Counted from the first letter of the stretch, positions 2,360-59,925 are shown. The stretch is 64,000 nucleotides of DNA from Myxococcota bacterium (GCA_049322495.1 JBMORD010000219.1:1-64000); one strand, 5' to 3'. The notes: generated by a model not told the origin, from the sequence alone. Numbers and translations are program-made.

Positions 2360-3700
2360 ATGGACCCGTTGACCTGGCACCGAGCGCAGTTCGCCTTCAC
2401 CATCGTCTACCACTACCTCTTTCCCCAGCTGACGATGGGCCTCGCGCTGCTCATCGTCATCTTCAAGGGGCTGGCGCTGCGCCCCGGCGGTGAGGCGTGG
2501 GCCGCGGTGGCGCGCTTCTGGGTGCGCGTCTTCGGGCTCAACTTCGCGGTGGGCGTCGTCACCGGGCTGCCGATGGAGTTCCAGTTCGGCACCAACTGGG
2601 CGCGCTTCTCACAGCTCACCGGCGGCGTCATCGGCCAGACGCTCGCCATGGAGGGCGTGTTCGCCTTCTTCCTCGAGTCGTCCTTCCTCGCGATGCTGGT
2701 GTGGGGCGAGCGGAAGCTCGGGCCGAAGAAGCACTTCGCGGCGGCGGTGGCGCTCTTCGTCGGCAGCTGGCTGTCGGGCGTCTTCATCATCACCACCAAC
2801 GCCTTCATGCAGCACCCGGTGGGCTCCACGCGCCTCGAAGACGGCACCTTCGTGCTGGCGGACCTCGGCGCGTTCCTCTTCAACCCGTGGGCGCTCGGGC
2901 AGTACGCGCACAACCAGCTCGCCTCGCTGGTGACGGCGTCCTTCGTGGTGACGGCGGTCGGCGCCTTCTGGGCGCTGCGCGGCACGCACCTCGAGGCGGC
3001 GTGGCTCAACCTCAAGGCGGGCACGCTCGCCGGCCTCGTCGCGACGCTGGGCGTGGCGTTCCCCACCGGCGACCACCAGGCCAAGCTCGTGGCGAAGCAC
3101 CAGCCCGCCGCGCTCGCGGCGATGGAGGGGCGCTTCGAGAGCGGCCCGCGCGCCACCATCCACCTCATCGGTCAGCCGAACGTCGCCGAGCGGCGCCTCG
3201 ACAACCCCATCGGCGTGCCGGCGGTGCTCTCGTTCCTCGCCTTCGGGAACTTCGACGCGCCGGTGGTGGGCCTCAACGACGTGCCCGTCGACGAGTGGCC
3301 GACGAACGTGGAGCTCCTCTACTACTCGTTCCACGTGATGGTCGGGCTGGGCACGCTCTTCATCGGCCTGATGGCGCTCGCGGTGCTCTTCCTGTGGCGC
3401 GGCTGGCTCGAGCGGAGCCGCTGGCTGCTGTGGGCGCTGATGCTCGCCTTCCCCTTCCCGTACATCGCCAACACCGCCGGGTGGATGACGGCGGAGCTCG
3501 GGCGGCAGCCCTGGCTCGTCTACGGGCTGCTGCGCACCGCCGAGGGCGCGAGCCCCACGGTGCACGCGGGCAGCACCGCCTTCACGCTCATCGGCTTCAC
3601 CGGGCTGTACTTCGTGCTCGGGCTGGCCTTCGTCTTCCTCGTGGGCCGCGAGGTGCTGCACGGGCCGGCCGGAGCGCACGCGGAGGCGCACCATGCTTGA
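2360..3700 (+). CDS. cydA: Cytochrome bd ubiquinol oxidase subunit I
   Basis: The N-terminus 'MDPLTWHRAQFAFTIVYHYLFPQLTMGLALLIVIFKG' matches CydA, the protein is multi-TM, and the length is 446 aa. Confidence 0.93.
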   Translation: MDPLTWHRAQFAFTIVYHYLFPQLTMGLALLIVIFKGLALRPGGEAWAAVARFWVRVFGLNFAVGVVTGLPMEFQFGTNWARFSQLTGGVIGQTLAMEGVFAFFLESSFLAMLVWGERKLGPKKHFAAAVALFVGSWLSGVFIITTNAFMQHPVGSTRLEDGTFVLADLGAFLFNPWALGQYAHNQLASLVTASFVVTAVGAFWALRGTHLEAAWLNLKAGTLAGLVATLGVAFPTGDHQAKLVAKHQPAALAAMEGRFESGPRATIHLIGQPNVAERRLDNPIGVPAVLSFLAFGNFDAPVVGLNDVPVDEWPTNVELLYYSFHVMVGLGTLFIGLMALAVLFLWRGWLERSRWLLWALMLAFPFPYIANTAGWMTAELGRQPWLVYGLLRTAEGASPTVHAGSTAFTLIGFTGLYFVLGLAFVFLVGREVLHGPAGAHAEAHHA

Positions 3701-4733
3701 GCTCCCGACGGTGTGGTTCTGGCTGGTGGCGCTGCTGCTGACGACGTGGGCGGTGCTCGACGGCTTCGACTTCGGCGTGGGCGTGCTGCACCGCTTCGTG
3801 GCGCGCACCGAGGTCGAGCGGCGCGAGGTGTTCGCCGCCATCGGCCCGGTGTGGGACGGGAACGAGGTGTGGCTGCTCGCCGCCGGCGGCTCGATGCTGC
3901 TCGCCTTCCCGCGGCTGCTGTCGGCCGGCTTCTCCGGTCTCTACCTGCCGGTCATCTTCGTGGTGTGGAGCCTCATCCTCCGCGGCGTGTCCGTCGAGCT
4001 GCGCAGCCACCTCCCCGCGCCGCTGTGGCGCAGCTTCTTCGACACCACCTTCGTGCTGGCCTCGCTCGCGGTGCCGGTGCTGATGGGCGCGGCGCTCGGG
4101 AACGTGGTGCGCGGCGTGCCGCTGCGGCCCGACGGCTACTTCGAGCTCGAGCTCTTCGGCACCGAGGGCCGGCCGGGCGTGCTCGACGGCTACACGCTGC
4201 TCGTCGCGGCGCTGGTGCTGGTGACGCTCACCGCGCACGGCGCCAACTGGCTGGTGTGGAAGACGGGCGGCGAGGTGCAGCGGCGCGCGGGCGCGGCCCG
4301 GCGGGTGCTGTGGCCGCTCGCGCTCGGGCTGTGGCTGGCGACGGCCCTCGCCACGCGCGCGGTGGCGCCGGAGCTCTTCGAGGGCTTCGCGGCGCGCCCG
4401 CTGGCCTGGCTCGGGCTCGCGCTGGCCCTCGGCGGGGCGGTGATGGTGGTGGTGATGCGGGGTGCGGAGCGCGCACCCTTCTTCGGCGGCGTGGCGTTCA
4501 TCGCGGGCCTGCTGGTGACGACCGTGGCGAGCCTGTTCCCCGTGGTGCTGCGGGCGTCGACCGGCGCTGAGCGCTCGCTCACCGTGCAGTCGGCCGCCGC
4601 CGCGTCGCATTCCCTCGGCGCGGCGCTCGGCTGGTGGCTGCCGGGCCTGGCGCTCGCCGCGGGCTACCTGTGGTGGGTGCTGCGGCACTTCCGTGGGAAG
4701 GTCGAGGCCGCTCGCGATGGCGAGGGATACTGA
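3693..4733 (+). CDS. cydB: Cytochrome bd ubiquinol oxidase subunit II
   Basis: 'MLELPTVWFWLVALLLTTWAVLDGFDFGVGVL' is the CydB signature. The gene overlaps the cydA stop by 8 nt, which indicates an operon. Confidence 0.9.
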   Translation: MLELPTVWFWLVALLLTTWAVLDGFDFGVGVLHRFVARTEVERREVFAAIGPVWDGNEVWLLAAGGSMLLAFPRLLSAGFSGLYLPVIFVVWSLILRGVSVELRSHLPAPLWRSFFDTTFVLASLAVPVLMGAALGNVVRGVPLRPDGYFELELFGTEGRPGVLDGYTLLVAALVLVTLTAHGANWLVWKTGGEVQRRAGAARRVLWPLALGLWLATALATRAVAPELFEGFAARPLAWLGLALALGGAVMVVVMRGAERAPFFGGVAFIAGLLVTTVASLFPVVLRASTGAERSLTVQSAAAASHSLGAALGWWLPGLALAAGYLWWVLRHFRGKVEAARDGEGY

Positions 4734-45779: not shown

Positions 45780-46763
45780 GTGACGTGGGGGGCGGGCCCA
45801 TCATCCGCGCTTCGCAGGCTTCCCACAGGAGTCGTCGTGAAAGGTGTGCTGCTGGGCCCCCAGCAACTGAAGCAGAGCCTCGGCGCGGCGGTGAAGGTGC
45901 TCGGTCGTGAGGGGCCCATCGCCTTGGTGACCGCCGGCTGGCAGGAGCGCGAGGACCAGGACGAGGAGCTCGCGGGTCAGCTCGGCCGCCCGACCATCAA
46001 CCTCAAGCTCTACGAGCGCGCCGAGCAGGTCTTCCACGAAGATCCGGAGTTCGCGAAGGCGCACCGCGCGCGGCAGGACCAGCTCCGGCAGATCCAGGAG
46101 TTCTACCGCGAGCGCCTCGAGCGCACCTTCGACGCGGCGATCGACATCGATCGTCGCTCGGTGGGCAGCGACCTCCACGCCGACGAGCTGCGGCTGTCGT
46201 TCGAGCAGATCCGCCGGCTCGATCAGGAGCACCTCGAGCGGGTGACGGCGCTCCGTGAGGCGCACGAGCTCCAGCTGCGGCCCTTCGAGCGGCCGGCGAT
46301 CGTGAAGCACCGCGACGAGCTCCGGCGGCTGCTCTCGCGGGTGCAGCTGCTGGCCATCGCCGGCGGGCACGTGGCGGGGCTGCTCAACCGGCTGCGGCTC
46401 TTCGGGCTCAAGGAGCTGCTGCAGGACCACGCGCTCATCGCCTGGAGCGGCGGCGCGATGGTCACCGGCGATCGCCTGGTGCTGTTCCACGAGAGCCCGC
46501 CCGAGGGCGTGGGCATCTCGGAGGTGCTGGAGCAGGGCCTCGGGCTGCACCACGGCGTGCTGCCGCTGCCCAACCCGAAGCTGCGCCTCAAGCTCGAAGA
46601 CAGGTTCCGGGTGAGCTGGCTCGCGCGGCGCTACCAGCCCGAGAAGTGCGTGGCGCTCGATCAAGGCGACTTCGTGCAGTTCGATGGCGACACGTGGTTC
46701 GGCAACGAGGGCACGGTGCAGCTCAAGACCGACGGCACGGTGAGCGCGGGGTGGACGTCATGA
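45780..46763 (+). CDS. Peptidase S51-like (cyanophycinase/dipeptidase E fold, class-I glutamine amidotransferase-like)
   Basis: 'VQLLAIAGGHVAGLLNRLRLFGLKELLQDHALIAWSGGAMVTG' resembles the S51 nucleophile region. The start may be the GTG near 45837. Confidence 0.5.
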   Translation: MTWGAGPSSALRRLPTGVVVKGVLLGPQQLKQSLGAAVKVLGREGPIALVTAGWQEREDQDEELAGQLGRPTINLKLYERAEQVFHEDPEFAKAHRARQDQLRQIQEFYRERLERTFDAAIDIDRRSVGSDLHADELRLSFEQIRRLDQEHLERVTALREAHELQLRPFERPAIVKHRDELRRLLSRVQLLAIAGGHVAGLLNRLRLFGLKELLQDHALIAWSGGAMVTGDRLVLFHESPPEGVGISEVLEQGLGLHHGVLPLPNPKLRLKLEDRFRVSWLARRYQPEKCVALDQGDFVQFDGDTWFGNEGTVQLKTDGTVSAGWTS

Positions 46764-47914
46764 ACCCGGCGGCTCCGGAGCTGGCGATCGAGAAGCTCAA
46801 GGCGCAGCGCCCCGACGGCGCGGCGGTCGACGCCTTCATGCGCTCGCATCACGCGTTCCCGCTCGTCGAAGGCACGCGGGTGACGTTCGTCTTCCGCGGA
46901 CCGGTCGACGCGGTGAACCTCAAGAGCTGGGTGTATGGTTTGCCGAACTCGCAGCCGCTGCTGCAGGTGGCCGGCACCGACCTCTGGTACCTCACGCTCG
47001 ACATCCCGCGGAAGTCGCGCGTCGAATACAAGTTCGAGCTCGTCCGCAACGGGCAGGGCGTGTGGATCGAGGATCCGCTCAACAAGAACCGGGCGACGGA
47101 TCCGTTCGGCGCGAACTCGGTGGTCCACGGCGAGGGCTACTCGGTGCCCGAGTGGACGCAGTACGACCCCGACGCGCGCCCCGGCGTGCTCGAGCCGTGG
47201 GTGATCAACAGCGCGGCGTTCAACGACACGCGGAAGTTCCACGTGTACCTGCCGGCGCGCTTCCGGCGCACGCGGCGCTACCCGCTGATCTTCGTGCACG
47301 ACGGGCCTGACTACGTGCGCTTCGCGAACCTCAAGGTGGTGCTGGACAACCTGATCCACCGCCTGGAGATCCCCGACGTCATCGTGGCGCTGTCGGGCTC
47401 GCCCAACCGCATCGGCGAGTACGCGAACGACGAGCGGCACGCGCGCTTCGTGACCGAGGAGGTGGTGCCAGACCTCGAGCAGCGGCTGCCGATCATCAGC
47501 GCGCCGCGCGGGCGGTGCCTCATGGGGGCGTCATTCGGAGGGGTGGCGGCGCTCTCGACGGCGGCGCGGTACCCGGGCTTCTACGGACGGCTGCTGCTGC
47601 AGTCGGGCTCGTTCGCGTTCAGCGACTTCGGGCACCAGAACGAGCGCGGCCCCGCGTGGGACCCGGTGGTGCGGTTCATGAACCGCTTCCGCGAGAACCC
47701 GGTGCACATCGCAGACAAGGTGTTCATGAGCTGCGGCATGCACGAGCGGTTGATCTACGAGAACCGCTCGCTGGTGCCGATGCTGCAGTCGACCGACATC
47801 GACCTGCGGTACGTCGAGGCGCGCGACGGGCACAACTGGGAGAACTGGCGCGACCGCCTGCGCGAGGGGCTGGCCTGGCTGTTCCCCGGCCCGCTGCGCA
47901 TGGTCTACGAGTGA
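46760..47914 (+). CDS. Enterochelin-esterase-like alpha/beta hydrolase (N-terminal Ig-like domain + esterase domain)
   Basis: The ATG overlaps the upstream stop. The esterase domain has 'YPLIFVHDGPDY' and 'RCLMGASFGGVAAL'. Confidence 0.7.
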   Translation: MNPAAPELAIEKLKAQRPDGAAVDAFMRSHHAFPLVEGTRVTFVFRGPVDAVNLKSWVYGLPNSQPLLQVAGTDLWYLTLDIPRKSRVEYKFELVRNGQGVWIEDPLNKNRATDPFGANSVVHGEGYSVPEWTQYDPDARPGVLEPWVINSAAFNDTRKFHVYLPARFRRTRRYPLIFVHDGPDYVRFANLKVVLDNLIHRLEIPDVIVALSGSPNRIGEYANDERHARFVTEEVVPDLEQRLPIISAPRGRCLMGASFGGVAALSTAARYPGFYGRLLLQSGSFAFSDFGHQNERGPAWDPVVRFMNRFRENPVHIADKVFMSCGMHERLIYENRSLVPMLQSTDIDLRYVEARDGHNWENWRDRLREGLAWLFPGPLRMVYE

Positions 47915-48342
47915 GTCAAATATGGCGACGTAAACTCCTCGATGAGTAGCTCTTCGGGGAATGGGGGCACTTCAACTTCAGTGCCGACATAGAGAGTCAT
48001 GTCGTATCCAAAATGCAGAAATGTTGCCGGTCGGCCTTCGAGCTTGCACCAATATCTCTCGCGGAGACAGTCGATTGTAACTTGCCTCAGTTCCTGCTCG
48101 GTTGTGACGAGGCCCGTTCGTAGCCATACTTGATACACGATGTCGTGGTTTTCGATCTTTCTCACAGCCAACGGGAGAGTTCGCACGAGACAACTGGCTG
48201 CAAAACTGACCATCTTCGTCTCGAACCGAAGATACTCGCTCTCCGATAGTATGACTCCTGCGAACACGCGTCCGACATCGGAAATGCTGGACCAGTCATC
48301 AGAAAAGCTGGCCCCTGGTCTTCTGCGAATTCGCAAGCGCAC
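47905..48342 (-). CDS. Probable cognate immunity protein of the downstream-encoded RHS toxin tip (low-GC)
   Basis: It lies immediately 3' of the RHS toxin gene on the same strand, and it falls in the same ~50% GC block as the toxin C-terminal domain. It shows no family resemblance. The true start may be the internal 'MVSFAASCLVRTL' near 48213. Confidence 0.45.
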   Translation of the reverse strand: MRLRIRRRPGASFSDDWSSISDVGRVFAGVILSESEYLRFETKMVSFAASCLVRTLPLAVRKIENHDIVYQVWLRTGLVTTEQELRQVTIDCLRERYWCKLEGRPATFLHFGYDMTLYVGTEVEVPPFPEELLIEEFTSPYLTHS

Positions 48343-51300
48343 TAGTCTCCGATCCTTTCAAGTGCTTCATTGAATGTTCCGAGTCTTGTCTGTTTGGACT
48401 TTAGTCCTTCAACAGTGTTGGCCATCTTGAATGCTCCACCATTGTGTGAGTCGACGTCGAATGAAATGTAGCGCTTTCCGTCTGTATAAACTGCTTGTCC
48501 GTGAGACTCGAAGTTCGTCTTTCGAAAGCCGAGTTTTGTAGCCAAATTCTTGAGGAACTCCTTTCGCGGTAGTGGTGGCGGGGGTGTCGGTGGTTTGAAT
48601 AGGTTTGATTGTGATTGTTTTGATGCCGAGACGAGATCGTCAATCGCTAGGCTATGACATCCGTTGTTGTGGACGATTGACGAGTTCTGTCCGACTGCGT
48701 AGTTGTGATGCTCTGCTATCTCAAGGTTGAAGACGGGAACGCTCCCGACTCTGGCGTTGACCGAGAGGACGCGCGAACGGCCGACGACACCACCCAACTC
48801 GACCAAGGGCTGCAGGGACCGGGCTTCGGCGAATTCACCCGAGGTGAGCAAAAAGGGATGCTCGGGAGTCGCCGTGATGGTCTCGCGCGAGCCGTCGGCT
48901 CCTTCGATGGTCACGTCGACGAGCTCCGAAGCGAGCAAGCTCCACGCATTGAGGACCGGTTGTGCCGACGCGACGCCGCGTTCGTCGACGGCGATGACGA
49001 GGTCGCCCGGCTGAATCTGTTCGATAGGCCGGTGCTCGCCCGACGCGAGCAGGACGAGAGTTCCGGCGACGAAACAGCCCTTACCTGTGATCTTGCACGC
49101 ACCCTCAGCGCAGGCGGACTTCAGGCTGTCAACGCCCTTCTTGATAGCGCCGCCGACCTTGGTCGCGACCGAGCCACCGATCTTCTTCAGCGTTGGCGCA
49201 GCTGCCTTGAGCAGTCCCGCCCCTCCCTTGACGACGCCCGCAGTCACGGTGCCCATCACGAAGTCGCCGGCCATGCTGTTGACGTCGAAGGCTTCGCTGA
49301 GACTCCCGGTCTTCACGCCGCGCTCGACGATTCCGCCTGCCATGCCGGAGACACCTCCGGTGACCAGGAGGCTCGCCCCGCCGGTCGCCGCAGCGAGGCC
49401 TCCCGCGACCGCGCCGCCGGCAGCGGCGGCGAGGGTGCCCTGGACCGTGGCCGTCTCGCCGTTCCACGCCGCCTTGGCGAGGTAGACAGCCGCACCGATT
49501 CCTCCACCGATCAGCGCGCCGATGACGATGTGACCGAACTGCCCCGACTTGTCTCTGAGGCTCGTCGGCGTGTTTCGCGAGTAGCTGTACAGATTGAGAA
49601 CTTGCGGGTCGTCCTGCGCCTCATCGGCGCCCGCGAGCAGGCTGAGGTCGGGCGAGATGAATCGCCCCAGGCGAACGTCGTAGTACCGGCTGTTCAGGTA
49701 CTGGAGCCCCGCCTCTGCATCGAACTCCGCGCCGATGAAGCCATACGGCTCGTCGCTCTGAACGATCGGGTTTCCCCACACGTCGAAGTTCGACTGCGCG
49801 AGCACCTCTCCCGCGTCGTTGAGCTGGATGTTGTGACTGCCGAGGTGGTTGTCGAGGTAATAGACGGCGCGCGACTGCGGCCCGCAGGAACACGAGCTCA
49901 GGAGCACGGCCAGCCCCACCGCCAGCGTCCGCACTGCGAGCTTGCGCTTCTGGAGCAGCAGCGCTGCCATCGCGAGCAGCATCGCGGCAGCAGCAGCCAG
50001 TGATGACGCGGCGCCCCCGAGCGAGGCCATCGCGGTCACCGTCTTCGGGAGCGCGCCACCGACTCGCGCGATGCGCGCCTCTCCGAGGTAGACGTACTTG
50101 ACCAACGCGCCGTCTCGAACCTCTGAGTACTTGTCCAGATACAGGGTCTGGTGGCTCGTCCCACCCCTCGTCACTCGCTTGAGTGTGCGCTGTCCTGTGT
50201 AGTCATACAGATACTCGGTCGTGGCTTCTTCGGTCTCGACCTTGCGAAGCTCGCCCCTCGGGTCCCAGGTGAAGGTCCGCCCGAGCGACACGGTCATCTG
50301 CCCGTTCGCGTTCGTCACCATCGGGCGCCCACCCACCGCGGTCAGCACGCTGGGTCGCGTCAGGTCTTCGTACGCGTACGCGCCAACGTCGCTCTTCTGC
50401 AGCAGGTTCCCCACGTCGTCGTACTGGTGACTGAGCACGCCGGCTGGTCCCCGGGCGTCCTTCAGGCGCATCAAGCTGTCGTAGGTGAACTCGAACGACG
50501 AGCTGAGCTGACCGGCCGTGTTGACCCGGTCGGTGATTCGCTCGAGCGACCCGACCGGGCTGTAGGCGAACTCGAGGTTCTGGAGCTCCTTGCCGGCCCT
50601 GCTGGCGCTCCGAATGTCTTTCACGCGGTCGTGATCGTCGTACCCGGCGGTGCTGACTACGCCGTTGGCGAGCGCCCGACGCACGGCGAGGCCCTTCGCG
50701 TTGTACTCCACGGCTTCGACGAAACCTTCGATCGCCGAGACCAGCCCGCGCTTGTTGAACGAGTACTTGATGACGCTTTCGTCGGGGTAGGTGATCTCGG
50801 TCGCGTGGTCGAGGTTGTCGAACTTCAGCGAGAGCGTGTAGGTCTTTCCCTCGAAGGTGCGCGCGTTGCTGACGAGTCGACGGCGCGCGTCGTAGGTGAA
50901 CGACTCCTCGCCAGCGAGGTCGACCACACGGCTCAGGTCGCCGACCGAGGTCTCGTCATAGAAGTAGCGGATGGTGCCCGTGTCGACTCCAGCCGCGTCG
51001 ACGAGTGACTCGGTGATGATCCGTCCCGCTCCGTCGTAGCTCCGCACCGTCGCCTGCCCCAGCGCGTCGCGCGCGACCGTACCGTTGCCGTCATCGTCGT
51101 ACTCCCAGGTTCGAGTTCCAGCCTCGGGGTGCTTCACCCTGGTCAGACGTGACAGGCCGTCAAACACGTACTCGACGCGTTGTTGGTTTGCGAGAACGAC
51201 GCCCGCTCGTCGACCTGCGGCGTCGAAGAGGAACTCGGTGGTCAGCGGTTTGTCTTTGAGCAGCTCGACCGTCTTGACGAGCCGCCCCAGGCCATCGAAC

Positions 51301-54300
51301 TCGTGGCGCATCGGTGTGTTGGCGTGTTCGGCGCCAGGCGTGAGATCGAGCGCGTCCCAGTTCTCGACCCAGAGCGGTCCACGACGCATCTCAGCGCGAG
51401 TCCCATCCTCGAAGGTGCTGCTCACCACCCGGCCGAGCGCGTCGTAGCGGTGCTTGACCGCCGGCGTTCCAGGCGCCGTGAGCTCGAGCGACGACGCGAA
51501 GTAGCTGTCCCACTCCTCGAGCACGCTTCCGCGCCGCGAGTATCGCTTTCGGCCCTCGACGACGACCTGATCATTCTCGATGAGGTGCTGGGTTGCGACC
51601 TTCCGCCCGAGCCCGTCGAAGAGGTCCTGGGTCTCGGTGTCCTCGCCGTCTCGCACCCGCGTCAGCATTCGCAGCCTGGAGTACGGGTTTGCGAGTTCGT
51701 ACACCCACGAGACCGTCGGCTGGTCGAGCGAATCTCCCGCCTGGGCGATCGCCGTCAATCGATGCAGGGCGTCCCACCGGTACTGACTCACGCTCGAGTT
51801 GGAGTCGGTGAACGACGCCACGAGGCCCATCGCGTTCTTGTAGGTCGCCTTGAACTCGAGCTTGCGGCTGTCGTCGATCCACAGCCGCTCGAGCACAGGG
51901 AAGGTGTGCGTCGGGTCCCACTCGATCTCCCTGCGGGCGCCGCGCGGAGTGCGCATCTCGATCGGGTTGCCGAACTCGTCTCGCTCGATCCGGCTCTGCT
52001 GGACCCAGCGCGTGCCTTCGACCCACGCCTCGGTGCGCGTCTCGGCTCCTCGCGTGAGCTCTCCGAGGGGGAGTCCCTGAAACGCGTCGCCGTCGTAGTA
52101 ATGCCGTGTGATGGTCAGCGGAGCGCCATCGGCGCCGAGCGACTTCTGCTCTACCGGTCGCCCGAGGATCCACTCGTCGAGCTTGTTGGCCCAGGTCGCG
52201 AGCTGCACGGACTCGTCGCCGGTGCGATCGGTCCTGCCCAGTTGATGGTCCTCGACCACGTTTCCGAAGGCGTCGTAGACGAAGGTCCGCTGGGTCTCGA
52301 CCGGCGACGATCGGCCTTCGAAGATCAACGTCGTCTCGGAGGTGAGTTCAGCTCCGGTCACGTTGACGCCGCCCGTGCCGAGCTCGTAGACGCGAGGAGT
52401 CCACGTCCGGGTGATTCGGCTGAAGCGGAAGCCGCCCGTGGCCCTCGCCTCGACGCTGAGTTCCCGACCGCGGAGCGTCTCCGACAAGACCTCGAAGACG
52501 TGCTCGGTCTCGAGCGATGGCTCGTCATCGTCGCCTTCGTCGGTCTGCACGACCACCCCGAAGCCGCGGAACTCGCGCGTCGCGCGCTCGTAGTGCCCTT
52601 CTCTGTAGCGGTACTGCGTGACGTAGTCGGCGCCGAGCGAGTCACTGAGTACCACGCCAGCGACGACCTGAACCGGGAACGGCACGCGGCGCTGCCACGG
52701 CGTGCCGGCCTCCTGGGCGAGCTGGAACTCCTCGCTGCTCGATGTGTACGCGAGCCGTCTGGTCATCCCCAGCCCGTTGGCGACGCGCGTGAGCAGGTTG
52801 GCGCGCATGCCGGGCTGCAGGTCGACGTACACCACGCGCTCGTCGGGGACCGCGGACGGCGTGAAGTAGACGACGTCGAGGCTCCCGTTGGCGTTCATGT
52901 CCGCCAGGCGGACCTGGGTGAGTCCGGCGTTGGCGAAGGGGGTGTTGGCGACGCTCTGCTTCGCTTCGAAGCGCTCCCCTGCACCGAGCTTCCAGAAGTC
53001 GACGTGTTCCGTGTCGACGAGCACGAGATCAGGCAGGCCGTCTCCCGTGAGGTCCGCGAATTGAAGGCGCGACTCGAGCGCGCCGACGTCCGGAACGTCG
53101 CTGAGCTCGACCGGCGCATCGAAGCGGCCACGTCCCATCCCCGGCCAGTACATGAGCGAAGCGCTGCGAACGAAGGCGATGTCGACGAGTCGGTCGCCGT
53201 TGACGTCGACCAGCTTGAAGCGCGGGTCGGCGAAGTCGACCGTGGTTTGACCGCTCAGCAGCGGCAGGGTCACGGCCGGCTCGAAGTCACCCGCACCGTT
53301 ATTTCGCCACCAGCTCACGCCGTTGGGGGCCACCCTCAGGACGTCCGGGAGCTTGTCGAAGTCGAGGTCCACCAGCCGCGTCGCGCCGTCCTCGAGGTTG
53401 AACGAGGGCATCGAGGTGAACGTCTCCGCCGGCCGCCAGTCGCCGTCGCCGCTCGCCGCGAAATACCTGAAGGCCGTCGTTCCCGTGTGCGCGAGGAGGT
53501 CCGCAAGACCATCACCGTTCATGTCGCCCAGCTCGACCCCTGTGGTCTGGAGCGCGACGTTGGGCGCAGCGGCAACGGGCCGTGGCGCCGCGAAGCGCAG
53601 GCCGCCGATGTTCCTCGCCCACTGATGCTGTCCCGTCGCCGCGACGAGCACATCGACGAACCCGTCGCCGTCGAAGTCGGTGAGCTCGGCGTCGAGGTTG
53701 CTCCCGGGGAGTTGCACTGGCCCGTTGGACATCGCCGACGGGTGAGCGCCGTTGCTCATGCCCGAGTACTCGAAGGTCAGCGGAGGGAAGGTCGTCCGGT
53801 CGTCGTCTCCGAACATGACGACCGAGTCGAGGAGCGACAGCCCCGTTCCCATCACGTACGTGAACTCGTAGCGCGCGAGCTGGGACGTGCCGCCGAAGAC
53901 CCGGATCCGCTTCAGGCGCCGCGCCGCCACGGTCTTGAAGCCGGGCTTGTAGTCCGTGAGGACGTCAGGGCGCTGCTCCCACTCGAGCTCGACGTGGTTC
54001 TGGGCTGCGCCCGCTCGACGGTTGTATTCGATGCGGGTGAGGGAGGGCCGGCCACCGTGCTTCTCGTAGAAATAGCTGATCCGGTTCTGAAACCGGTCGA
54101 CCTCTTCTTCGAGCATCAATTGGAAGACCCGGCCGGCGTCTTCGATGCGGCTCTCCGGTGAGAGGCCGAAGCGCTGCGTGTTCCCGGACGGAAGGTCGAC
54201 CTCGAAGTGAGCGCCCGACTGTCGGACCCGGACGAAGCGCCCCTCGTTCTTCAGGCGCCAGGTGCCGTTGGGCAGCTTGACCAGCTCCGCGCCCGAGAGG

Positions 54301-54641
54301 AGCCAGGTGTCCTGGCCCGAATACCGGGGGAGGCCCTTCTCGGTCTGGAGCTGCATCGAAGCGACGGGGAGGCTCCACCCAATCCCCAGCTCTCCGTTGC
54401 CCGAGCCCGAGTCGTAGGTGATGGCGAGCTGCGGCGTCATCCCAGCCGTGCCCGGCGGGAGCTTGATGGGGATCGACTCGGTCGCGCTACCGCTGTTGAG
54501 CACGACCTGGAATGACTCGCCGAGCCCCGAGACGCTGCCCGGGCCCTTCGGGACATTGATGAGCTGAGGGCGGGTTCCGGACTTGTCTGCGAGACAGACG
54601 AACGACAGAAGGCACACGAGTGCCAGGAGCATCGGGCGCAT
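48342..54641 (-). CDS. RHS-repeat polymorphic toxin (TcB/TcC-like): signal peptide, SpvB domain, FG-GAP/VCBS beta-propeller, RHS repeats with core, Gly-zipper segment, Hint domain and a C-terminal toxin domain
   Basis: The start is 'MRPMLLALVCLLSFVCLA' with an AGGGAG Shine-Dalgarno sequence 7 nt upstream. The SpvB-type N-terminus reads 'SIPIKLPPGTAGMTPQLAITYDSGSGNGELGIGWSL'. FG-GAP-like motifs include 'DFDGDGFVDVL', 'DMNGDGLADLL' and 'DLTGDGLPDLVLV'. Many YD repeats are present, for example 'YRYDALGRLT', 'YDALGRVV', 'FDGLGRLV' and 'YTYDARRRLV'. The RHS core end is 'NLYSYSRNTPTSLRDKSGQFG'. A Gly/Ala-rich hydrophobic stretch follows. The Hint domain runs 'CFVAGTLVLLASGEHRPIEQIQPGDLVIA...SIVHNNGC'. 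The final ~105 aa are low-GC. Confidence 0.9.
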   Translation of the reverse strand: MRPMLLALVCLLSFVCLADKSGTRPQLINVPKGPGSVSGLGESFQVVLNSGSATESIPIKLPPGTAGMTPQLAITYDSGSGNGELGIGWSLPVASMQLQTEKGLPRYSGQDTWLLSGAELVKLPNGTWRLKNEGRFVRVRQSGAHFEVDLPSGNTQRFGLSPESRIEDAGRVFQLMLEEEVDRFQNRISYFYEKHGGRPSLTRIEYNRRAGAAQNHVELEWEQRPDVLTDYKPGFKTVAARRLKRIRVFGGTSQLARYEFTYVMGTGLSLLDSVVMFGDDDRTTFPPLTFEYSGMSNGAHPSAMSNGPVQLPGSNLDAELTDFDGDGFVDVLVAATGQHQWARNIGGLRFAAPRPVAAAPNVALQTTGVELGDMNGDGLADLLAHTGTTAFRYFAASGDGDWRPAETFTSMPSFNLEDGATRLVDLDFDKLPDVLRVAPNGVSWWRNNGAGDFEPAVTLPLLSGQTTVDFADPRFKLVDVNGDRLVDIAFVRSASLMYWPGMGRGRFDAPVELSDVPDVGALESRLQFADLTGDGLPDLVLVDTEHVDFWKLGAGERFEAKQSVANTPFANAGLTQVRLADMNANGSLDVVYFTPSAVPDERVVYVDLQPGMRANLLTRVANGLGMTRRLAYTSSSEEFQLAQEAGTPWQRRVPFPVQVVAGVVLSDSLGADYVTQYRYREGHYERATREFRGFGVVVQTDEGDDDEPSLETEHVFEVLSETLRGRELSVEARATGGFRFSRITRTWTPRVYELGTGGVNVTGAELTSETTLIFEGRSSPVETQRTFVYDAFGNVVEDHQLGRTDRTGDESVQLATWANKLDEWILGRPVEQKSLGADGAPLTITRHYYDGDAFQGLPLGELTRGAETRTEAWVEGTRWVQQSRIERDEFGNPIEMRTPRGARREIEWDPTHTFPVLERLWIDDSRKLEFKATYKNAMGLVASFTDSNSSVSQYRWDALHRLTAIAQAGDSLDQPTVSWVYELANPYSRLRMLTRVRDGEDTETQDLFDGLGRKVATQHLIENDQVVVEGRKRYSRRGSVLEEWDSYFASSLELTAPGTPAVKHRYDALGRVVSSTFEDGTRAEMRRGPLWVENWDALDLTPGAEHANTPMRHEFDGLGRLVKTVELLKDKPLTTEFLFDAAGRRAGVVLANQQRVEYVFDGLSRLTRVKHPEAGTRTWEYDDDGNGTVARDALGQATVRSYDGAGRIITESLVDAAGVDTGTIRYFYDETSVGDLSRVVDLAGEESFTYDARRRLVSNARTFEGKTYTLSLKFDNLDHATEITYPDESVIKYSFNKRGLVSAIEGFVEAVEYNAKGLAVRRALANGVVSTAGYDDHDRVKDIRSASRAGKELQNLEFAYSPVGSLERITDRVNTAGQLSSSFEFTYDSLMRLKDARGPAGVLSHQYDDVGNLLQKSDVGAYAYEDLTRPSVLTAVGGRPMVTNANGQMTVSLGRTFTWDPRGELRKVETEEATTEYLYDYTGQRTLKRVTRGGTSHQTLYLDKYSEVRDGALVKYVYLGEARIARVGGALPKTVTAMASLGGAASSLAAAAAMLLAMAALLLQKRKLAVRTLAVGLAVLLSSCSCGPQSRAVYYLDNHLGSHNIQLNDAGEVLAQSNFDVWGNPIVQSDEPYGFIGAEFDAEAGLQYLNSRYYDVRLGRFISPDLSLLAGADEAQDDPQVLNLYSYSRNTPTSLRDKSGQFGHIVIGALIGGGIGAAVYLAKAAWNGETATVQGTLAAAAGGAVAGGLAAATGGASLLVTGGVSGMAGGIVERGVKTGSLSEAFDVNSMAGDFVMGTVTAGVVKGGAGLLKAAAPTLKKIGGSVATKVGGAIKKGVDSLKSACAEGACKITGKGCFVAGTLVLLASGEHRPIEQIQPGDLVIAVDERGVASAQPVLNAWSLLASELVDVTIEGADGSRETITATPEHPFLLTSGEFAEARSLQPLVELGGVVGRSRVLSVNARVGSVPVFNLEIAEHHNYAVGQNSSIVHNNGCHSLAIDDLVSASKQSQSNLFKPPTPPPPLPRKEFLKNLATKLGFRKTNFESHGQAVYTDGKRYISFDVDSHNGGAFKMANTVEGLKSKQTRLGTFNEALERIGD

Positions 54642-54652
54642 GGTCGGCTCCC

Positions 54653-57600
54653 TCACTGAACCGTGTAGGCGTCGTGCGTGAGCTGAATCTCGATGTCATC
54701 CAGACCAGCGAGGTTCAGGTTCGCGTTGGCGGGGCTCGCTGGAGTCTGGTCGATGATGAGCTGCCACGGGCTGGCGAGCACTGCGCGCTCCTGCAACTCG
54801 ATGTTCTCGACCAGGGCGGTGAAGCCGGGGGCGTTGATCCCCGCCTGCACGATGGCAAGGCTGGGCTGGTTTGCCTTGCCGCTCACGTCATATGCGATGA
54901 TTGGCGCGACGCCGGACATGTCACGCACCCGAGCCCGCAGGTAGCTCGTGCCTCCATGGATGAGCTGCACCTGCGCAGATGTCACGCCAGCGCCGAGGTT
55001 GTCTCCGACGAGGTTGACTCGGATGGAGCGGATGCGGTCGGACGCGAGCAGCGACGAGAAGATGGGGTTCTCGGTGTTGTGCGTCGAGAACTGGATGTGG
55101 AAGTTGCCATTGGAGTCCCGGTTCTCTGGTGCCATCACGAAGCGGCGGAAGCGTTCGCGCGCGCTGATGATCTCGCCCGTCGCGACGTCTTTGATTGGCG
55201 CGGTGAAGCCGAGGATCTTCTCGCGGAGCGAGATGACGTCGACGCGCGTCTGCGGGCTGCCTGCCATTCCGGCAATGGTGCCCAGGGTGCCGTTCAGATA
55301 ACTGGAAAGTTCGACCGGCGAGCGAGCCGCCCACATCGGCGACTGGTCGATCGTCATGTTGAGCTGGTACTCGAGCGCGCGGGTGGCGAGGAACGCCCAC
55401 TGGAGCGCATTCCTTCCATCTCGCGCGGCGATCTGCCCGAGGTGGTTGGCGTAAATTCGATAGTGAATCGCCTGGAGACCCTGATTGCGGGTCAGCGATT
55501 CGGCGCGCGCCTTCGCTTCGAGAAGTTGATCCGCCTTTTCGTAGAGGGCGTTGAGTCGGCCCGCGGCCTGCGCGAGCCCATTGAGGGCGATGGACTGCTC
55601 GAGCTGCAGGGAGTCGAGCTGGAGGAGCTTCGCCTTGACCGTTGCAGCCGAGTTGATCAGTTCCGTCTGCGCGTAGCTGAATTCAATCGTCGCGGACTGG
55701 TTGATCTGCAGGGCGGCCTTCCCCTGCTCTGCGAGCAGCTTGATCTCGTCATTGATGCGACTGATGACGGCGTGTGCGACCCCGATGACGACCTGAGCTG
55801 TGCTCGCCACGCCCCAGCTGCTTGATGCGCTTCCCGCGGCGGCCATGGCGGTGCTCGCCGCGATGTCAACGGTGTGCTGGAAGATGTTCACCCGGCCGAT
55901 GGCGTAGTCGAGCGCCATGACCGCTGCCCCGGTCGTGCGAATCAGCTTGGCGTTGTTTTCATGCACTCCGGCCACCGCTGCGGCGCGGCTCTGCTCGATT
56001 GTGATCTCTCGAACGACGTTCTGGGCGTTCAGCGCCACGGCCTCGACGCGCTTGTTGGCGGCGACGATCTCGAGCCGCGCCTGCGAGAGCTGGCTGGCGT
56101 TAGTGGAGCCGAAGTCCGAGCCACAGTCCTCCAGGTTTGTCGCGGTGGCGCCACAGATGTCGCGGAACTGCCCGAGGATGGTTGAGGCCTGGCCGTTGAG
56201 TTCCGCCTGCATTGCGGTGGTACTGGTCTCGAAGGCTCGCGTGTTGGCCTGTGCCAGGCTGTAGGACGTCGACCACTGCGTCGCACTGCTGTCCGCGGAG
56301 CTCTTGATTTGGATGTAATTGGTTGCGCCCATTCCGTCTTTGTTCCAGAAGAACGGCACGTACCCTTCAACGTAGCCAAGGGCATTCTTGCCGTCCTCGA
56401 CGTCCTTCAGATCGCCAGACAACGCACGCCACTCCGCCTGGAGCGCTGAGACCTCTGGCGCCCAGGTCGAGGGACTCTTGGCGATGGTGGGGCCAAGTGC
56501 GGCGACGGCAAGGTACGCAGTGGCGAGGCCCTCTTTGAGCTTCGCTCGTGCTTCCTGGTCGGCGCTTCGCTTGCGCATCACGAACGCCTGCTGGTCGATG
56601 GCAAACATCAAGGCGTTGATGTCGAGCAGTCCGCGGCGGAGTTGCTCGCCGGCGCCCACCGCAGCCGGACCAATGAACTCCTCGGTGGGAATTGGGGAGG
56701 TCGTCAGATCGGTTGCCGTCAGTCTGCTCAGGTAGGTGGCAATCGCGGGGTCGGCGAACGCGATTGGCGTGGTGGCCGTCGAATACAGCCCGGTCGCGAG
56801 CCGTGTCGCTCCGAGTCCGAACGTATTCTCCGTCGTCTGAAGCGAGGCGGAAGGGTCGACGAAGTCGTCGCTGGCGGCGGCGACGGCCGCGTTCCCCTCG
56901 TAGAGAGCGGCGTCAGAGGCGACCTTGAGCGTGTTCAGGAATCGCCCCGCGACGCTCGTATCGCCAGCGCGCAGCGCCTTGGCGTACCAATACTGCGCAC
57001 ATCGGAGGTAGAGGACGTCATAGGTTCTGCGGTTCGCACAGAACGTGACGTCAGGCCCCACCGGCGCGACGCAGCGGTCTGCCTGATAGGGGGTCGAGGA
57101 GGTCGGAAGGAATTCGTAGTAAAACTGCATGGACAGCTTCTTCCCGGAGGGGGCGAAGTTGAAGAAGGAGTCTCCGTTGGCCGAGGCGCTCGAGCCACAG
57201 GCTCCAGTCGGACAGGTCAGACAGGCCTGATAGGCGGCGCGTGGGTTGCCGGCGGCATCGACAAAGGGGTCTTCGATGGCAGGGGCCTCTGCGGAGTGTG
57301 GGATCGCCGCCAGGGTGCGCGCCGGCCCCATCCGCCGGAGGACTGCGGCGCCGCTGACAGTCGTTCCCGCGCCAAGGACGCCGCGAATGGTCTCGGTGTA
57401 CGTTCCTGAGAGGACACCCGGCGACGTCTGACGGACCTTGATCTCGACCGCTCGCGTCAGGTTGTTGGGGACGGCCGGGTTGGCGGCAGTGCCTCGCGCG
57501 GCATCCATCGAGAACTTGAGCGTCAACTCGCCGTCCGTCACTTGACCCGAGAGGGCTGCGTCGACGGGCCAGACCGGTGACGCATCGCCCACGACGGCGC

Positions 57601-58366
57601 CTTGAAGGGCGGTCGTTCCGCTGAACGTCAGCAGCGCGCTGTGTCGGCCGAGCTCGACCGGGCTGCTGATGTTGAAGACCCCAGCCCAGGTTCCCTCGAG
57701 CGGCTCGTTCAGCCGGAGCGCGATGCGCTTCGTTCCCGCGCTCGTGTTGACCGTCAGCGACGCGCTGGTCGTCGCACCGAGCGCCGCGCGATCGAGCACC
57801 ACGGTGAGCGTCACCGGCTGTCCCGAGACGCGGCCCTCGAAGGGCGTGACGGAGAATGCTTCGGATGAGGAGAGAACCCGGAAGTCGAAGGGCTCCCCGC
57901 CCGCATTCGAGAGCACGACCTGCTGGGAATTGGTCGCGTCATCGAAGGCGAGAAGCTCCACGCTCAGCTGCGGCACGCCCTTGCTCGGTGGCGTCGGCGC
58001 GGGTGGGGTGGTGACGGCCTCTTCCTCGAGACACCTGCCGCGGAGGCTGCAGACCGTGCCGTTCGAGCAGTCCTTGTCCGCGAGGCAGTCGTGCCGGCAC
58101 GAACCCAGCTTGCAGTAATCACCGCGCGGGCAGTCGGCGTCGAGGGCGCAGGCCGAGAAGCTCGTCGCGGTCGCTGGCGCCTGGCCGCAGCGGCCCTCAG
58201 TACAGACCTCGTTCTCGCGGCAGTCCGGCGTCACCGAGCACGCCGGGTTGCATGCGCGTCCCGGCAGGCAGACGCCTCCGTCGTTGCCTGCGCCGCCGTC
58301 GGGCACTTGCATCGTCGAGCCACAACCGACCAACCAGACCACTCCCAACAGCCACGTTGTTCGCAT
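54653..58366 (-). CDS. Large lipoprotein, possibly a TcA-like (Tc toxin A-component-like) partner of the RHS protein
   Basis: The start is 'MRTTWLLGVVWLVGCGS' with a lipobox. An N-terminal Cys-rich EGF-like module is followed by a ~700-aa alpha-helical core and a C-terminal beta-rich domain ('VNLVGDNLGAGVTSAQVQLIHGGTSYLRARVRD...'). Its stop is 11 nt from the RHS gene start on the same strand. The TcA assignment is a hypothesis. Confidence 0.5.
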   Translation of the reverse strand: MRTTWLLGVVWLVGCGSTMQVPDGGAGNDGGVCLPGRACNPACSVTPDCRENEVCTEGRCGQAPATATSFSACALDADCPRGDYCKLGSCRHDCLADKDCSNGTVCSLRGRCLEEEAVTTPPAPTPPSKGVPQLSVELLAFDDATNSQQVVLSNAGGEPFDFRVLSSSEAFSVTPFEGRVSGQPVTLTVVLDRAALGATTSASLTVNTSAGTKRIALRLNEPLEGTWAGVFNISSPVELGRHSALLTFSGTTALQGAVVGDASPVWPVDAALSGQVTDGELTLKFSMDAARGTAANPAVPNNLTRAVEIKVRQTSPGVLSGTYTETIRGVLGAGTTVSGAAVLRRMGPARTLAAIPHSAEAPAIEDPFVDAAGNPRAAYQACLTCPTGACGSSASANGDSFFNFAPSGKKLSMQFYYEFLPTSSTPYQADRCVAPVGPDVTFCANRRTYDVLYLRCAQYWYAKALRAGDTSVAGRFLNTLKVASDAALYEGNAAVAAASDDFVDPSASLQTTENTFGLGATRLATGLYSTATTPIAFADPAIATYLSRLTATDLTTSPIPTEEFIGPAAVGAGEQLRRGLLDINALMFAIDQQAFVMRKRSADQEARAKLKEGLATAYLAVAALGPTIAKSPSTWAPEVSALQAEWRALSGDLKDVEDGKNALGYVEGYVPFFWNKDGMGATNYIQIKSSADSSATQWSTSYSLAQANTRAFETSTTAMQAELNGQASTILGQFRDICGATATNLEDCGSDFGSTNASQLSQARLEIVAANKRVEAVALNAQNVVREITIEQSRAAAVAGVHENNAKLIRTTGAAVMALDYAIGRVNIFQHTVDIAASTAMAAAGSASSSWGVASTAQVVIGVAHAVISRINDEIKLLAEQGKAALQINQSATIEFSYAQTELINSAATVKAKLLQLDSLQLEQSIALNGLAQAAGRLNALYEKADQLLEAKARAESLTRNQGLQAIHYRIYANHLGQIAARDGRNALQWAFLATRALEYQLNMTIDQSPMWAARSPVELSSYLNGTLGTIAGMAGSPQTRVDVISLREKILGFTAPIKDVATGEIISARERFRRFVMAPENRDSNGNFHIQFSTHNTENPIFSSLLASDRIRSIRVNLVGDNLGAGVTSAQVQLIHGGTSYLRARVRDMSGVAPIIAYDVSGKANQPSLAIVQAGINAPGFTALVENIELQERAVLASPWQLIIDQTPASPANANLNLAGLDDIEIQLTHDAYTVQ

Positions 58367-58422
58367 CGAGAGCCTCGTGTAGGGTTTCCGACCTTCATAC
58401 TTCAGCGGGGAAGAGGGCGTCC

Positions 58423-59925
58423 ATGTTGCTGCGCGTCGGTTTGCTGGTGGTGGTCGTGCTGTCGTCATCATGCGGGACGACGTCGGGTGTTGATGGCGGG
58501 GGCGGTGGCGGTTCGGGTGGAAACTCGGGAACGGGCGGAGGTGGCGGCGGTGGTCCCGCGTTGGCCATCGTCACCGAGACTCTCGGCAGCGGGCGTATTG
58601 GCGTCGCGTATTCACAGCCGCTCTCCGCGTCCGGCGGTGTTGGCCCGTACGGTTGGGTGATCGTCTCAAAGTCGCCGTCGTTCACCTGGCTGACGATTGG
58701 ATCGAACACCGGCACGCTCAGCGGTCTGCCTGCGACGGCCGGCACAGGCTCCGTCGTCGTGGCGGTCACCGATCAGAACGCCGTCACGATCTCGAAGGAG
58801 TTCTCGCTGCAGATCGATGCGTGCCAGAGCGGAAGCACGGTTGCGTGCGCGGTCCCCATCGGCGGCGGGTGCTCGGTCGGAACGCAGACGTGCGTCAACG
58901 GCGAGCTCTCAGGCGCATGCTCGGGAGCCCTCTCGACGGACGTCAGCCGATGCGGCCCGTCGTGTGGGGCCTGCGATCCCGTGACGGCGGATCGCTGTGC
59001 GGCCGGCGTTTGTGCGTGCGGCGGCGGGGCTGCGTGCGGTGTCGGACAGGCCTGCTGCGGCGGTGTGTGCAAGAGCCTCGATGACCCACGAAGCTGCGGC
59101 GCGTGTGCGAATGATTGCACGTCGATGGCAGGTCAGAACGTCACCGCGTCCTGTTCATCACGTCAGTGTGCGTTCGCGTGCTCGGCTCCGAACTTCAATC
59201 ACTGCGTTGGCAATACTTCGGTGCCTCCGACGGCCGGCGTTGCTTGCGAGACCGACGTCGCCCTGTCAGTCGACAACTGCGGCAGCTGCGGACACGGTTG
59301 TGCGCCCTTGTCGAACTCGAACACGGTCGCTCCGGGTGGCGTGTCTTGCAGCAGTGGTCAGTGCCGCATCACGTGCGCGCTCCAGTTCTTGAACTGCAAT
59401 GGGGCAACCGAAGACGGGTGCGAGGTTCCGTTTTCTGTGATGAATTGTGGTTCTTGCGGCAACGTCTGCCAGGCCGGCGCGAATGCAACCACCACCTGCA
59501 CCTCGGGCGCGTGTGTCTTTTCGTGTGTGAGTCCTCGGATTCACTGCGGTTCGCCGCTCGGTAACAACGTTGCGTGTGAAACCGACCCGACCAACGACTG
59601 GAATAACTGTGGAGGTTGCGGACGGCGGTGTGCGTCGGACAAGGCCGACAATTGCACGGGTGGGCAGTGCCGCTGCGGCGCGAACGCAGCCTGTGGCGCG
59701 GGCCTGCGCTGCGTTGGCGGGGCGTGCATTTGTGACACCCAGAGCGGGTGCGCAGGCTGCTGCGTTGGAGGGACGACCTGCGCGGCGGGCACCTCCGGTA
59801 CTTCGTGTGGTGAGGGCGGCGTGACATGCGCCAGCTGCAGCTCGCTCGTCTGCGAGGTGGGCCCGCCGGTCGTCAGAGGCTTCTGCGACAGCTCCCTGAC
59901 TCCTCGGCAGTGCGGTTGTCTCTGA
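58423..59925 (+). CDS. Cys-rich lipoprotein with a putative Ig-like (He_PIG/cadherin-like) domain and myxobacterial Cys-rich repeats
   Basis: The start is 'MLLRVGLLVVVVLSSSCGTTSG', followed by a Gly-rich linker. 'LAIVTETLGSGRIGVAYSQPLSASGGVGPYGWV' is the Ig-like region. More than 60 Cys follow in repeating 'CxxCGxxC' / 'NCGxCG' units. Confidence 0.6.
   Translation: MLLRVGLLVVVVLSSSCGTTSGVDGGGGGGSGGNSGTGGGGGGGPALAIVTETLGSGRIGVAYSQPLSASGGVGPYGWVIVSKSPSFTWLTIGSNTGTLSGLPATAGTGSVVVAVTDQNAVTISKEFSLQIDACQSGSTVACAVPIGGGCSVGTQTCVNGELSGACSGALSTDVSRCGPSCGACDPVTADRCAAGVCACGGGAACGVGQACCGGVCKSLDDPRSCGACANDCTSMAGQNVTASCSSRQCAFACSAPNFNHCVGNTSVPPTAGVACETDVALSVDNCGSCGHGCAPLSNSNTVAPGGVSCSSGQCRITCALQFLNCNGATEDGCEVPFSVMNCGSCGNVCQAGANATTTCTSGACVFSCVSPRIHCGSPLGNNVACETDPTNDWNNCGGCGRRCASDKADNCTGGQCRCGANAACGAGLRCVGGACICDTQSGCAGCCVGGTTCAAGTSGTSCGEGGVTCASCSSLVCEVGPPVVRGFCDSSLTPRQCGCL

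Follow-up and report, generated by a model that had tools for sequence, protein, structure and literature searches.

A 64,000-nt stretch of DNA from a Myxococcota bacterium (GCA_049322495.1 JBMORD010000219.1:1-64000, hereafter the window) encodes on its minus strand a large RHS polymorphic toxin whose 3' end, together with the small gene directly downstream, forms a block of markedly low G + C content (GC). This block is very probably the variable tip and immunity cassette of the toxin, recombined onto a conserved scaffold from an AT-shifted pool and recently arrived. Direct support comes from the identified domains and their catalytic residues, the coupled pair of genes, an alternative cassette at a syntenic locus, the family-wide association of the small gene with Ntox21 toxins, and the compositional edges of the block. 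The features on which the argument draws are the following, in window coordinates.

47900..48733, strand not assigned: low-GC block, the putative exchanged cassette (maximum-likelihood segmentation, z = -6.2, contrast in GC at third codon positions, GC3)
48342..54656, minus strand: RHS polymorphic toxin gene, 2104 amino acids (aa) (open reading frame (ORF) list and Pfam)
48666..49034, minus strand: PT-HINT (pretoxin Hint) domain, ~aa 1875-1997 (Pfam PF07591, 45.3 bits against a cut-off of 27.7, 1.4e-11)
48546..48665, minus strand: variable linker or pre-toxin segment, aa 1998-2037, 40 aa, with a Pro-rich stretch (alignment)
48345..48545, minus strand: Ntox21 toxin domain, aa 2038-2104 (Pfam PF15526, 83.8 bits against a cut-off of 25)
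48456-48458 (D2067), 48450-48452 (D2069), 48444-48446 (H2071) and 48426-48428 (K2077), minus strand: predicted Ntox21 catalytic residues (alignment with 4NTQ_A)
47905..48342, minus strand: predicted cognate immunity gene, 145 aa (coupling, co-conservation with the tip, family context)
46757..47914, plus strand: convergent esterase gene at the distal edge of the cassette (Pfam Esterase, 1.3e-23; host-type GC3 of 0.96)

In 200-nt windows, GC drops from 0.63-0.73 to 0.45-0.54 over ~47900 to ~48760 and then recovers to 0.63-0.66. Across the whole 64 kb (mean GC 0.703), all 200-nt windows below 0.56 are confined to this block. Two-boundary maximum-likelihood segmentation of 46500-50500 places the edges at 47900 and 48733 (GC 0.498 inside versus 0.674 outside; 49.8% versus 67-70% in the flanks), with a log-likelihood gain of 43 nats and each edge fixed to within ~40 nt at 2-3 nats. 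The lowest GC among the 2460 other 834-nt windows of the 64 kb is 0.627 (mean 0.705, sd 0.033), which gives the block a z of -6.2. An original prediction, made from the sequence alone, had described a sharp low-GC block covering the toxin tip and its immunity gene; it is confirmed, and the block is unique in the 64 kb. That prediction had also pointed to GC3 in the correct reading frame as a check, and GC3 turns out to be non-uniform, falling from 0.86 to 0.45-0.58.

Codon by codon, the contrast is concentrated at third positions. Codons 1-1970 of the RHS gene have GC at first, second and third positions of 0.665/0.472/0.858, compared with 0.538/0.425/0.453 in the tip (codons 1999-2104) and 0.562/0.425/0.582 in the 145-codon gene; codons 1971-1998 have a GC3 of 0.714 and the convergent esterase gene one of 0.959. 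Within the RHS gene the fall in GC3 is stepwise, from 0.9 (codons 1961-1970) to 0.6-0.7 (1971-2010) and then to 0.2-0.7. Amino-acid composition as the cause of the drop was ruled out on these figures: the shift is far smaller at first and second codon positions, and since it falls mainly on third, synonymous positions, it reflects base composition itself and not which amino acids are encoded.

The block takes in the final ~23 codons of PT-HINT, the 40-aa linker, the Ntox21 domain and the 145-codon gene, all of them encoded on the minus strand. Its RHS-side edge at 48733 corresponds to ~codon 1975, ~23 codons ahead of the end of PT-HINT (H1996-N1997, last base 48666). The block therefore begins inside the last conserved part of Hint and not after Hint, where the drop had initially been located. 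The RHS frame is open and uninterrupted across this edge. At the other end, GC returns to high values at the convergent esterase gene, just as proposed: the distal edge coincides with a 10-nt tail-to-tail overlap between the immunity gene (stop 47905-47907) and the esterase gene (stop 47912-47914).

Related loci carry other cassettes on the same scaffold. A search of genome-collection contigs returned one locus, L002, from an Archangium sp. metagenome-assembled genome (MAG), which is colinear with window positions 56039-48830. The two share 76% nucleotide identity over this 7.2-kb span, which takes in the 1272-aa gene upstream of the RHS gene. Past 'VVHNAGC', the L002 tip is a WHH/colicin-DNase nuclease followed by a SMI1/KNR4 (SUKH) immunity gene, unrelated to Ntox21. 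Codon-level identity between the window and L002 is 0.7-0.84 up to ~codon 1940, patchy (0.42-0.73) over codons 1940-1998, and random (0.31-0.53) after 1998; for the linker, the nucleotide identity past codon 1998 is likewise at a random level, 0.36-0.49. A protein search with scaffold residues 1632-1998 as the query gave relatives at 46-78% identity. The proteins P0002-P0006 have in common the scaffold of RHS C-terminus, Gly-rich segment and PT-HINT, each with a different tip, and the contigs that encode P0002-P0004 (L003, L004 and L006) each have a different small downstream gene. Homologous scaffolds bearing unrelated tips, with small downstream genes of their own, are what defines a polymorphic toxin. 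The sole locus with the same type of cassette is L001, in which the scaffold is 78% identical and, at the protein level, the toxin 59% and the immunity protein 53-54%. Finally, L004 and L006 contain orphan modules, truncated at the 5' end but still homologous to the scaffold, downstream of another RHS end.

These comparisons bear directly on the original prediction. Its proposal that a C-terminal toxin and immunity cassette had been replaced by recombination is supported by the WHH/SUKH cassette of L002 and the other tips of P0002-P0006. It had also suggested that relatives be searched for alternative cassettes, and these were found; the cassette of L001, the only one of the same type, is far from identical. 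The orphan tips it foresaw do occur in relatives, in L004 and L006, but none is present in the window: no second scaffold, Ntox21 or immunity copy, and hence no orphan array, was found within the 64 kb, and no orphan module lies downstream of the main gene, where the esterase gene adjoins the immunity gene.

Two of the related loci have further structure of their own. An RHS gene in L004 (3-281) ends in 'IVHNNSCAQKL' and a stop, 7 residues past HN and with no toxin tip, and is followed by P0003, an orphan module that is truncated at the 5' end and has an immunity gene of its own; the tipless end may be a deletion or rearrangement scar. In L006, two successive Hint-tip-immunity units with different tips (3-1753 and 1753-3872) precede a HamA-domain gene and make up a cassette array. 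The L006 tips have no significant Pfam match, and one is weakly GIY-YIG-like by eye.

The toxin protein comprises, in order, a signal peptide, SpvB, FG-GAP, TcdB_midN, RHS repeats, the RHS C-terminal core, a Gly/Ala-rich hydrophobic stretch, PT-HINT, the linker and Ntox21 (Pfam: SpvB 1.2e-24, FG-GAP_3 5.8e-27, TcdB_toxin_midN 3.8e-33, RHS_repeat 1.4e-25). RHS cores canonically end in PxxxxDPxGL, which is both the core/tip boundary and an autoproteolysis site. Here the core ends in '...NLYSYSRNTPTSLRDKSGQ', with DKSGQ where that motif is expected, so the canonical form is absent. Given this degenerate core end, the Gly/Ala-rich stretch of ~150 aa and Hint, the variable region begins ~290 aa past the end of the core. 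The stretch itself, between the core end and Hint (window 49050-49560, minus strand; aa ~1700-1870), is hydrophobic and glycine-zipper-like.

PT-HINT starts with 'GKGC-FVAGT...' and ends with ...SSIVH(1996)N(1997), followed by N-G-C(2000); besides a profile score above the cut-off, it thus has a Cys block at its N-terminal end and, at its C-terminal end, HN with a nucleophile after it. By analogy with Hint and intein chemistry, Hint most likely releases the toxin via Asn cyclisation at H1996-N1997. The 'VHN-x-x-C' junction is common to L001, L002 and P0002-P0005 (P0006 reads 'VHNGAY'), and sequences diverge past it. An HN-x(1-2)-C junction is also found in metagenome loci that encode Ntox21. 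In the alignment, the linker motif 'IDxLVxxSKxSQ' is common to the window, L001 and the metagenome loci L075 and L086.

The tip matches Ntox21 over profile positions 2-71 of 71 (Pfam PF15526, E = 1.1e-23 to 9.1e-22), and its sole match among PDB sequences is 4NTQ_A, the CdiA-CT of E. cloacae (E = 7e-8). Ntox21, a BECR-type RNase family, is among the families that the original prediction had put forward for profile searches. The founding member, CdiA-CT of Enterobacter cloacae, is colicin E3-like and cuts 16S rRNA between A1493 and G1494; its active site consists of Asp203, Asp205, His207 and Lys214 (PMC5435912, PMC9086364). These four residues of 4NTQ_A (D203/D205/H207/K214) align with identical residues D2067/D2069/H2071/K2077 of the tip. 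The catalytic motif of the family is described as [DS]xDxxxH ... K plus RxG[ST] (PMC3482391), and the tip has D2067-V-D2069-S-H2071...K2077 and T-R-L-G-T (aa 2090-2094, the TRxGT motif). Across 18 aligned Ntox21 tips, D2067, H2071, K2077 and TRxGT are invariant and D2069 is nearly so. Homology with CdiA-CT and colicin E3, together with the intact D-x-D-x-H...K active site, makes the decoding centre of 16S rRNA in target cells the most likely site of cleavage by the toxin. When the tip was used as the query, a word-indexed protein search gave no matches.

The predicted immunity gene is translationally coupled to the toxin gene. Its GTG start shares one base with the RHS TAG stop (TAGTG), with GGAG 4 nt upstream, and a promoter/terminator scan of 47400-49300 found no terminator-like site between genes. 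The AlphaFold2 (AF2) model of the 145-aa protein has a predicted local distance difference test score (pLDDT) of 90.8. A word-indexed search alone gave one homologue, P0001 (53-54% identity), on the 2.7-kb contig L001, where its gene directly follows the tail of an RHS gene with the same scaffold and an Ntox21 tip. An exhaustive HMMER search of 1.84 billion representatives instead revealed a family of at least 845 clusters, defined at 50% identity (845 at E <= 1e-3 and 235 at E <= 1e-10). Members are mostly 150-175 aa long, with the motifs YRITKYNP, WTSxSDIG, LRExxWCRL, HFGYDYxMY and SPY. None of 41 family members matches Pfam or NCBIfam, and no PDB sequence matches the family profile; this excludes CdiI(ECL) as the identity of the 145-aa protein, which is not detectably a member of Imm41 or Barstar either.

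The family is repeatedly found directly downstream of Ntox21. We fetched 80 metagenome loci with the family profile and counted the 70 with at least 200 nt of upstream sequence: an Ntox21 coding sequence lies within 450 nt upstream of the family member in 27, and 8 of the 8 upstream ORFs checked are Ntox21 (Pfam). The metagenome Ntox21 tips are carried by RHS, Hint and other scaffolds. This association suggests that the 145-aa protein confers immunity to Ntox21. Elsewhere, family members are found among clustered small genes or as fusions with a WapI-like immunity domain, arrangements that are typical of orphan immunity genes. A tentative, though quite possible, reading is that the 145-aa proteins form a large and possibly undescribed Ntox21-specific immunity family, often orphan, that lacks a Pfam or NCBIfam model, has no structural relative recognisable in the PDB and occurs in hosts of ~25% to 72% GC; the window copy would then mark cross-phylum flow of Ntox21/immunity cassettes into Myxococcota.

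Many family members have no adjacent toxin (alignment A3; loci L014-L093), and these toxin-less loci look like orphan or poly-immunity islands. Nine near-identical loci are preceded by a Cys-rich small ORF (L042, L053 and L078 are human-gut contigs; the nine are not so labelled), and in L009 and L010 the family member clusters with DUF4261 and PM0498 genes. In L074, an Ntox37 C-terminus (~2400-2703; Pfam, 3.4e-18) ends 193 nt upstream of the family member; the immunity gene for Ntox37 probably lies in between, and this is another multi-cassette locus.

Low GC proves to be widespread among such cassettes. The tip and immunity gene are below the scaffold in GC in all six of the six loci with this scaffold (tip GC3 0.46-0.58 versus 0.62-0.82), and the immunity gene is below its distal flank in 36 of the 46 metagenome loci with enough flank (median -7.5 points). 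The AT shift is thus a general trait of the mobile cassette pool, and the contrast in the window, ~-18 to -20 points, is among the largest. GC in the immunity family ranges from 0.25 to 0.72 (median 0.45). Some members are at host level (L067, 0.72 versus 0.71 in the flank), so low GC is not required by the protein.

The composition also constrains the time of arrival. Under a two-state amelioration model with an equilibrium GC3 of 0.84 and any donor GC3 of at least 0.25, the upper limits are ~0.1 neutral substitutions per site for the tip and ~0.2 for the immunity gene. Synonymous divergence (dS) of the window from both L001 and L002 is at least 1 and near saturation, which is at least 0.5 per lineage. 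If substitution is neutral, the cassette would have arrived well after the lineages of the window, L001 and L002 split, in which case simple inheritance from a common ancestor does not explain its presence in both the window and L001. The claim that the replacement was recent accordingly stands to the extent that the neutral model does. The claim of a lower-GC donor holds in that the cassette is AT-shifted; no donor was found, and the shift is generic to the cassette pool.

Several points weigh against recent acquisition from such a pool, or at least limit how far it can be pressed. Because all cassette types are AT-shifted, low GC may say little about a particular donor. Searches of proteins, metagenomes and the genome collection found neither a donor nor any near-identical cassette: outside L001, the closest tip shares 56% identity (L075, in a cassette of ~0.4 GC), and the nearest immunity proteins are 53-54% (L001) and then 43%. 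Looking up the exact sequence of the immunity protein gave no record. The same cassette type sits on the same scaffold in L001, a diverged relative, and so could reflect a single older acquisition whose low GC was otherwise maintained; selection that maintains low GC may be an alternative to recent arrival. Synonymous sites are near saturation in all comparisons (scaffold proportion of synonymous differences, pS, 0.57 versus a compositional ceiling of 0.615; cassette pS 0.82-0.85), so the ages of cassette and scaffold are not directly comparable, and a dS comparison of the two was dropped as uninformative. An esterase gene was looked for downstream of the cassettes in L001 and L002 with no match, and the distal junction cannot be compared there. 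The single-sequence AF2 model of the tip, whose order of helix, five strands and helix is compatible with Ntox21, is unreliable at a pLDDT of 51. That the tip is toxic, that Hint cleaves and that the 145-aa protein confers immunity are predictions.

Could the cassette instead be old, inherited vertically and shared with the L001 lineage, its low GC kept by selection for low expression or weak codon adaptation, by regulation of the xenogeneic-silencing type, or by fast AT-biased diversification? L001 does have the same type of Ntox21 tip and immunity gene on its 78%-identical scaffold, with a GC dip of its own (0.52-0.59 versus 0.65-0.70), and the AT shift of every cassette type in related loci, like that of the immunity family in 36 of 46 metagenome loci, would fit a cause other than recent transfer. 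However, the syntenic L002 locus has a wholly different cassette, relatives harbour orphan modules, and a cassette as old as the split between the window and L001 should be ~85% ameliorated under neutrality. The existence of members at host-level GC such as L067 also argues that low GC is not needed for function. We therefore consider long-term vertical inheritance unlikely.

Sharp compositional edges on both sides would also be expected if an insertion sequence (IS), transposon, integrative element or phage had inserted, in place of recombination within the RHS gene. Yet the ORF list has no transposase or integrase at or near the block edges and no IS element, and a repeat scan of 47400-49300 found no direct or inverted repeats at the edges beyond short, chance-level matches. 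No tRNA gene or attachment-site-like feature was noticed at the block, although no dedicated tRNA scan was made. The RHS frame is unbroken through the edge, which lies in sequence conserved among alleles, as expected of a homologous crossover, and insertion of a mobile element is very improbable. Still less credible is an assembly chimera or contamination that joined a high-GC genome to a lower-GC fragment, for which the compositional contrast itself is the only argument: the RHS ORF continues in frame over the edge, through Hint and into a complete toxin domain, the immunity gene stops inside the esterase overlap, and the same combination of scaffold and cassette type recurs in L001, which was assembled independently.

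Recombination of a cassette onto the RHS scaffold suggests the following working model. A large secreted TcB/TcC-like RHS protein, with a Sec signal and an RHS cocoon, would carry Hint followed by the Ntox21 RNase. Hint would free the toxin through Asn cyclisation at N1997, and the released Ntox21 fragment would cleave 16S rRNA in target cells. The 145-aa protein, translationally coupled to the RHS gene, would bind the toxin and protect the producer, as its context and the family-wide association with Ntox21 suggest. The cassette itself would have been loaded by homologous recombination, with the upstream crossover in the conserved 3' Hint-coding sequence, and the distal join at the esterase gene would be illegitimate or now erased. 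Its source would be an AT-shifted, horizontally circulating pool of toxin/immunity genes, and its time in a genome of ~70% GC would have been too short for amelioration.

Upstream of the toxin gene, and overlapping its start (ATGA), is a gene that may contribute to delivery.

54653..58471, minus strand: upstream 1272-aa gene (ORF; Pfam)

It is colinear and ~83% identical in translation in the Archangium MAG, and is a probable operon partner of the RHS gene. The sole matches of its product are to the Cys-rich DUF7107 and, weakly, to BACON_2; no TcA domains are detectable with Pfam, and it may be a delivery partner, perhaps with a TcA-like role. A PADLOC scan of the toxin, the immunity protein and the upstream protein gave no matches. 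GC3 is 0.96 in the esterase gene, 0.86 in the RHS gene and 0.81 in the 1272-aa partner, so the whole RHS operon falls a little short of the host optimum, a sign of either low expression or acquisition at an older date. The esterase gene also has a sub-threshold Enterochelin_N match (Pfam, 24.9 bits versus a cut-off of 27.1).

At window positions 49780-49930 (minus strand), the RHS gene encodes, in addition, an internal hydrophobic insert of ~50 aa, '...AAAAMLLAMAALLLQKRKLAVRTLAVGLAVLLSSCSCG...' (RHS aa ~1577-1625), which lies after the last YD strand and before the C-terminal core of the RHS protein ('VYYLDNHLGS'). It resembles a transmembrane helix followed by a lipoprotein-type signal with a lipobox. 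The insert is kept in L002 and P0002-P0004, and the orphan-module proteins called in L004 and L006 start near this site.

The locus offers a clean, well-bounded case of what is very probably toxin/immunity cassette exchange in a high-GC, myxobacterium-like genome, and the exchange junction in this RHS lineage appears to be the end of Hint, not the canonical DPxGL. Annotators can confidently call the 834-nt block a predicted toxin tip of the 16S-rRNase type with its immunity gene. The widespread immunity family associated with Ntox21, which lacks a Pfam or NCBIfam model, merits both a family model and a structure.

The architecture of the scaffold recalls the Tc toxin TcB-TcC cocoon, with N-terminal SpvB, FG-GAP and TcdB_midN domains (recognised by Pfam) followed by an RHS shell. 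In TcB-TcC, the C-terminal toxic domain is encapsulated in the RHS shell and cleaved off. Unlike TcB-TcC, the protein described here is fused into one polypeptide; it has a signal peptide and also contains Hint, a Gly-rich segment and the additional hydrophobic insert. Unlike in Tc toxins, the upstream partner has no detectable TcA domains. At the level of the tip, the closest parallel is CdiA-CT(ECL)/CdiI(ECL) of E. cloacae ATCC 13047 (PDB 4NTQ), in which the toxin domain is homologous and all four active-site residues are kept.

A survey of polymorphic toxins lists Ntox21 with 'Proteases: HINT; Repeats: RHS, FilH', and describes a TcdB/TcaC-type trafficking class and diversification through recombination with cassettes (Zhang, Aravind et al. 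2012, PMC3482391). The immunity families it gives for Ntox21 are Imm-Barstar and Imm41, and its phyletic list for Ntox21 is without delta-proteobacteria or Myxococcota (PMC3482391). Unlike in those systems, the 145-aa protein matches neither the Imm-Barstar nor the Imm41 Pfam family. Ferredoxin-like FdL-Imm families are paired with Ntox21 in S8-PTS/BetaH toxins of Gram-positive bacteria (PMC9424270), whereas the window genome is myxobacterium-like; the 145-aa family may coincide with one of these FdL-Imm families, described in 2022.

The overall phenomenon is a known one, Rhs C-terminal displacement, and involves no new mechanism or class of system. In enterobacterial Rhs and CDI loci, core and tip are decoupled, displacement by laterally acquired tips has been described (Jackson et al. 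2009, PMC2935791), and orphan rhs-CT/rhsI modules are known (Poole et al. 2011, PMC3150448). The locus differs from enterobacterial Rhs in its junction, which is the end of PT-HINT ('VHNxxC') ~290 residues past the end of the core where theirs is DPxGL, in its scaffold, which is TcB/TcC-like with a signal peptide in a myxobacterium-like genome of ~70% GC where theirs is a type VI secretion system (T6SS) PAAR-Rhs, and in the absence of an orphan array from the window. The parallels are nonetheless close. As in enterobacterial Rhs, a conserved RHS core is joined to a hypervariable C-terminal toxin with the cognate immunity gene directly downstream, homology between alleles stops at a conserved junction, and the composition of the tip is unlike that of the core; orphan modules with a 5' truncation and core homology occur in relatives, and the tips are thought to be laterally acquired and exchanged by homologous recombination.

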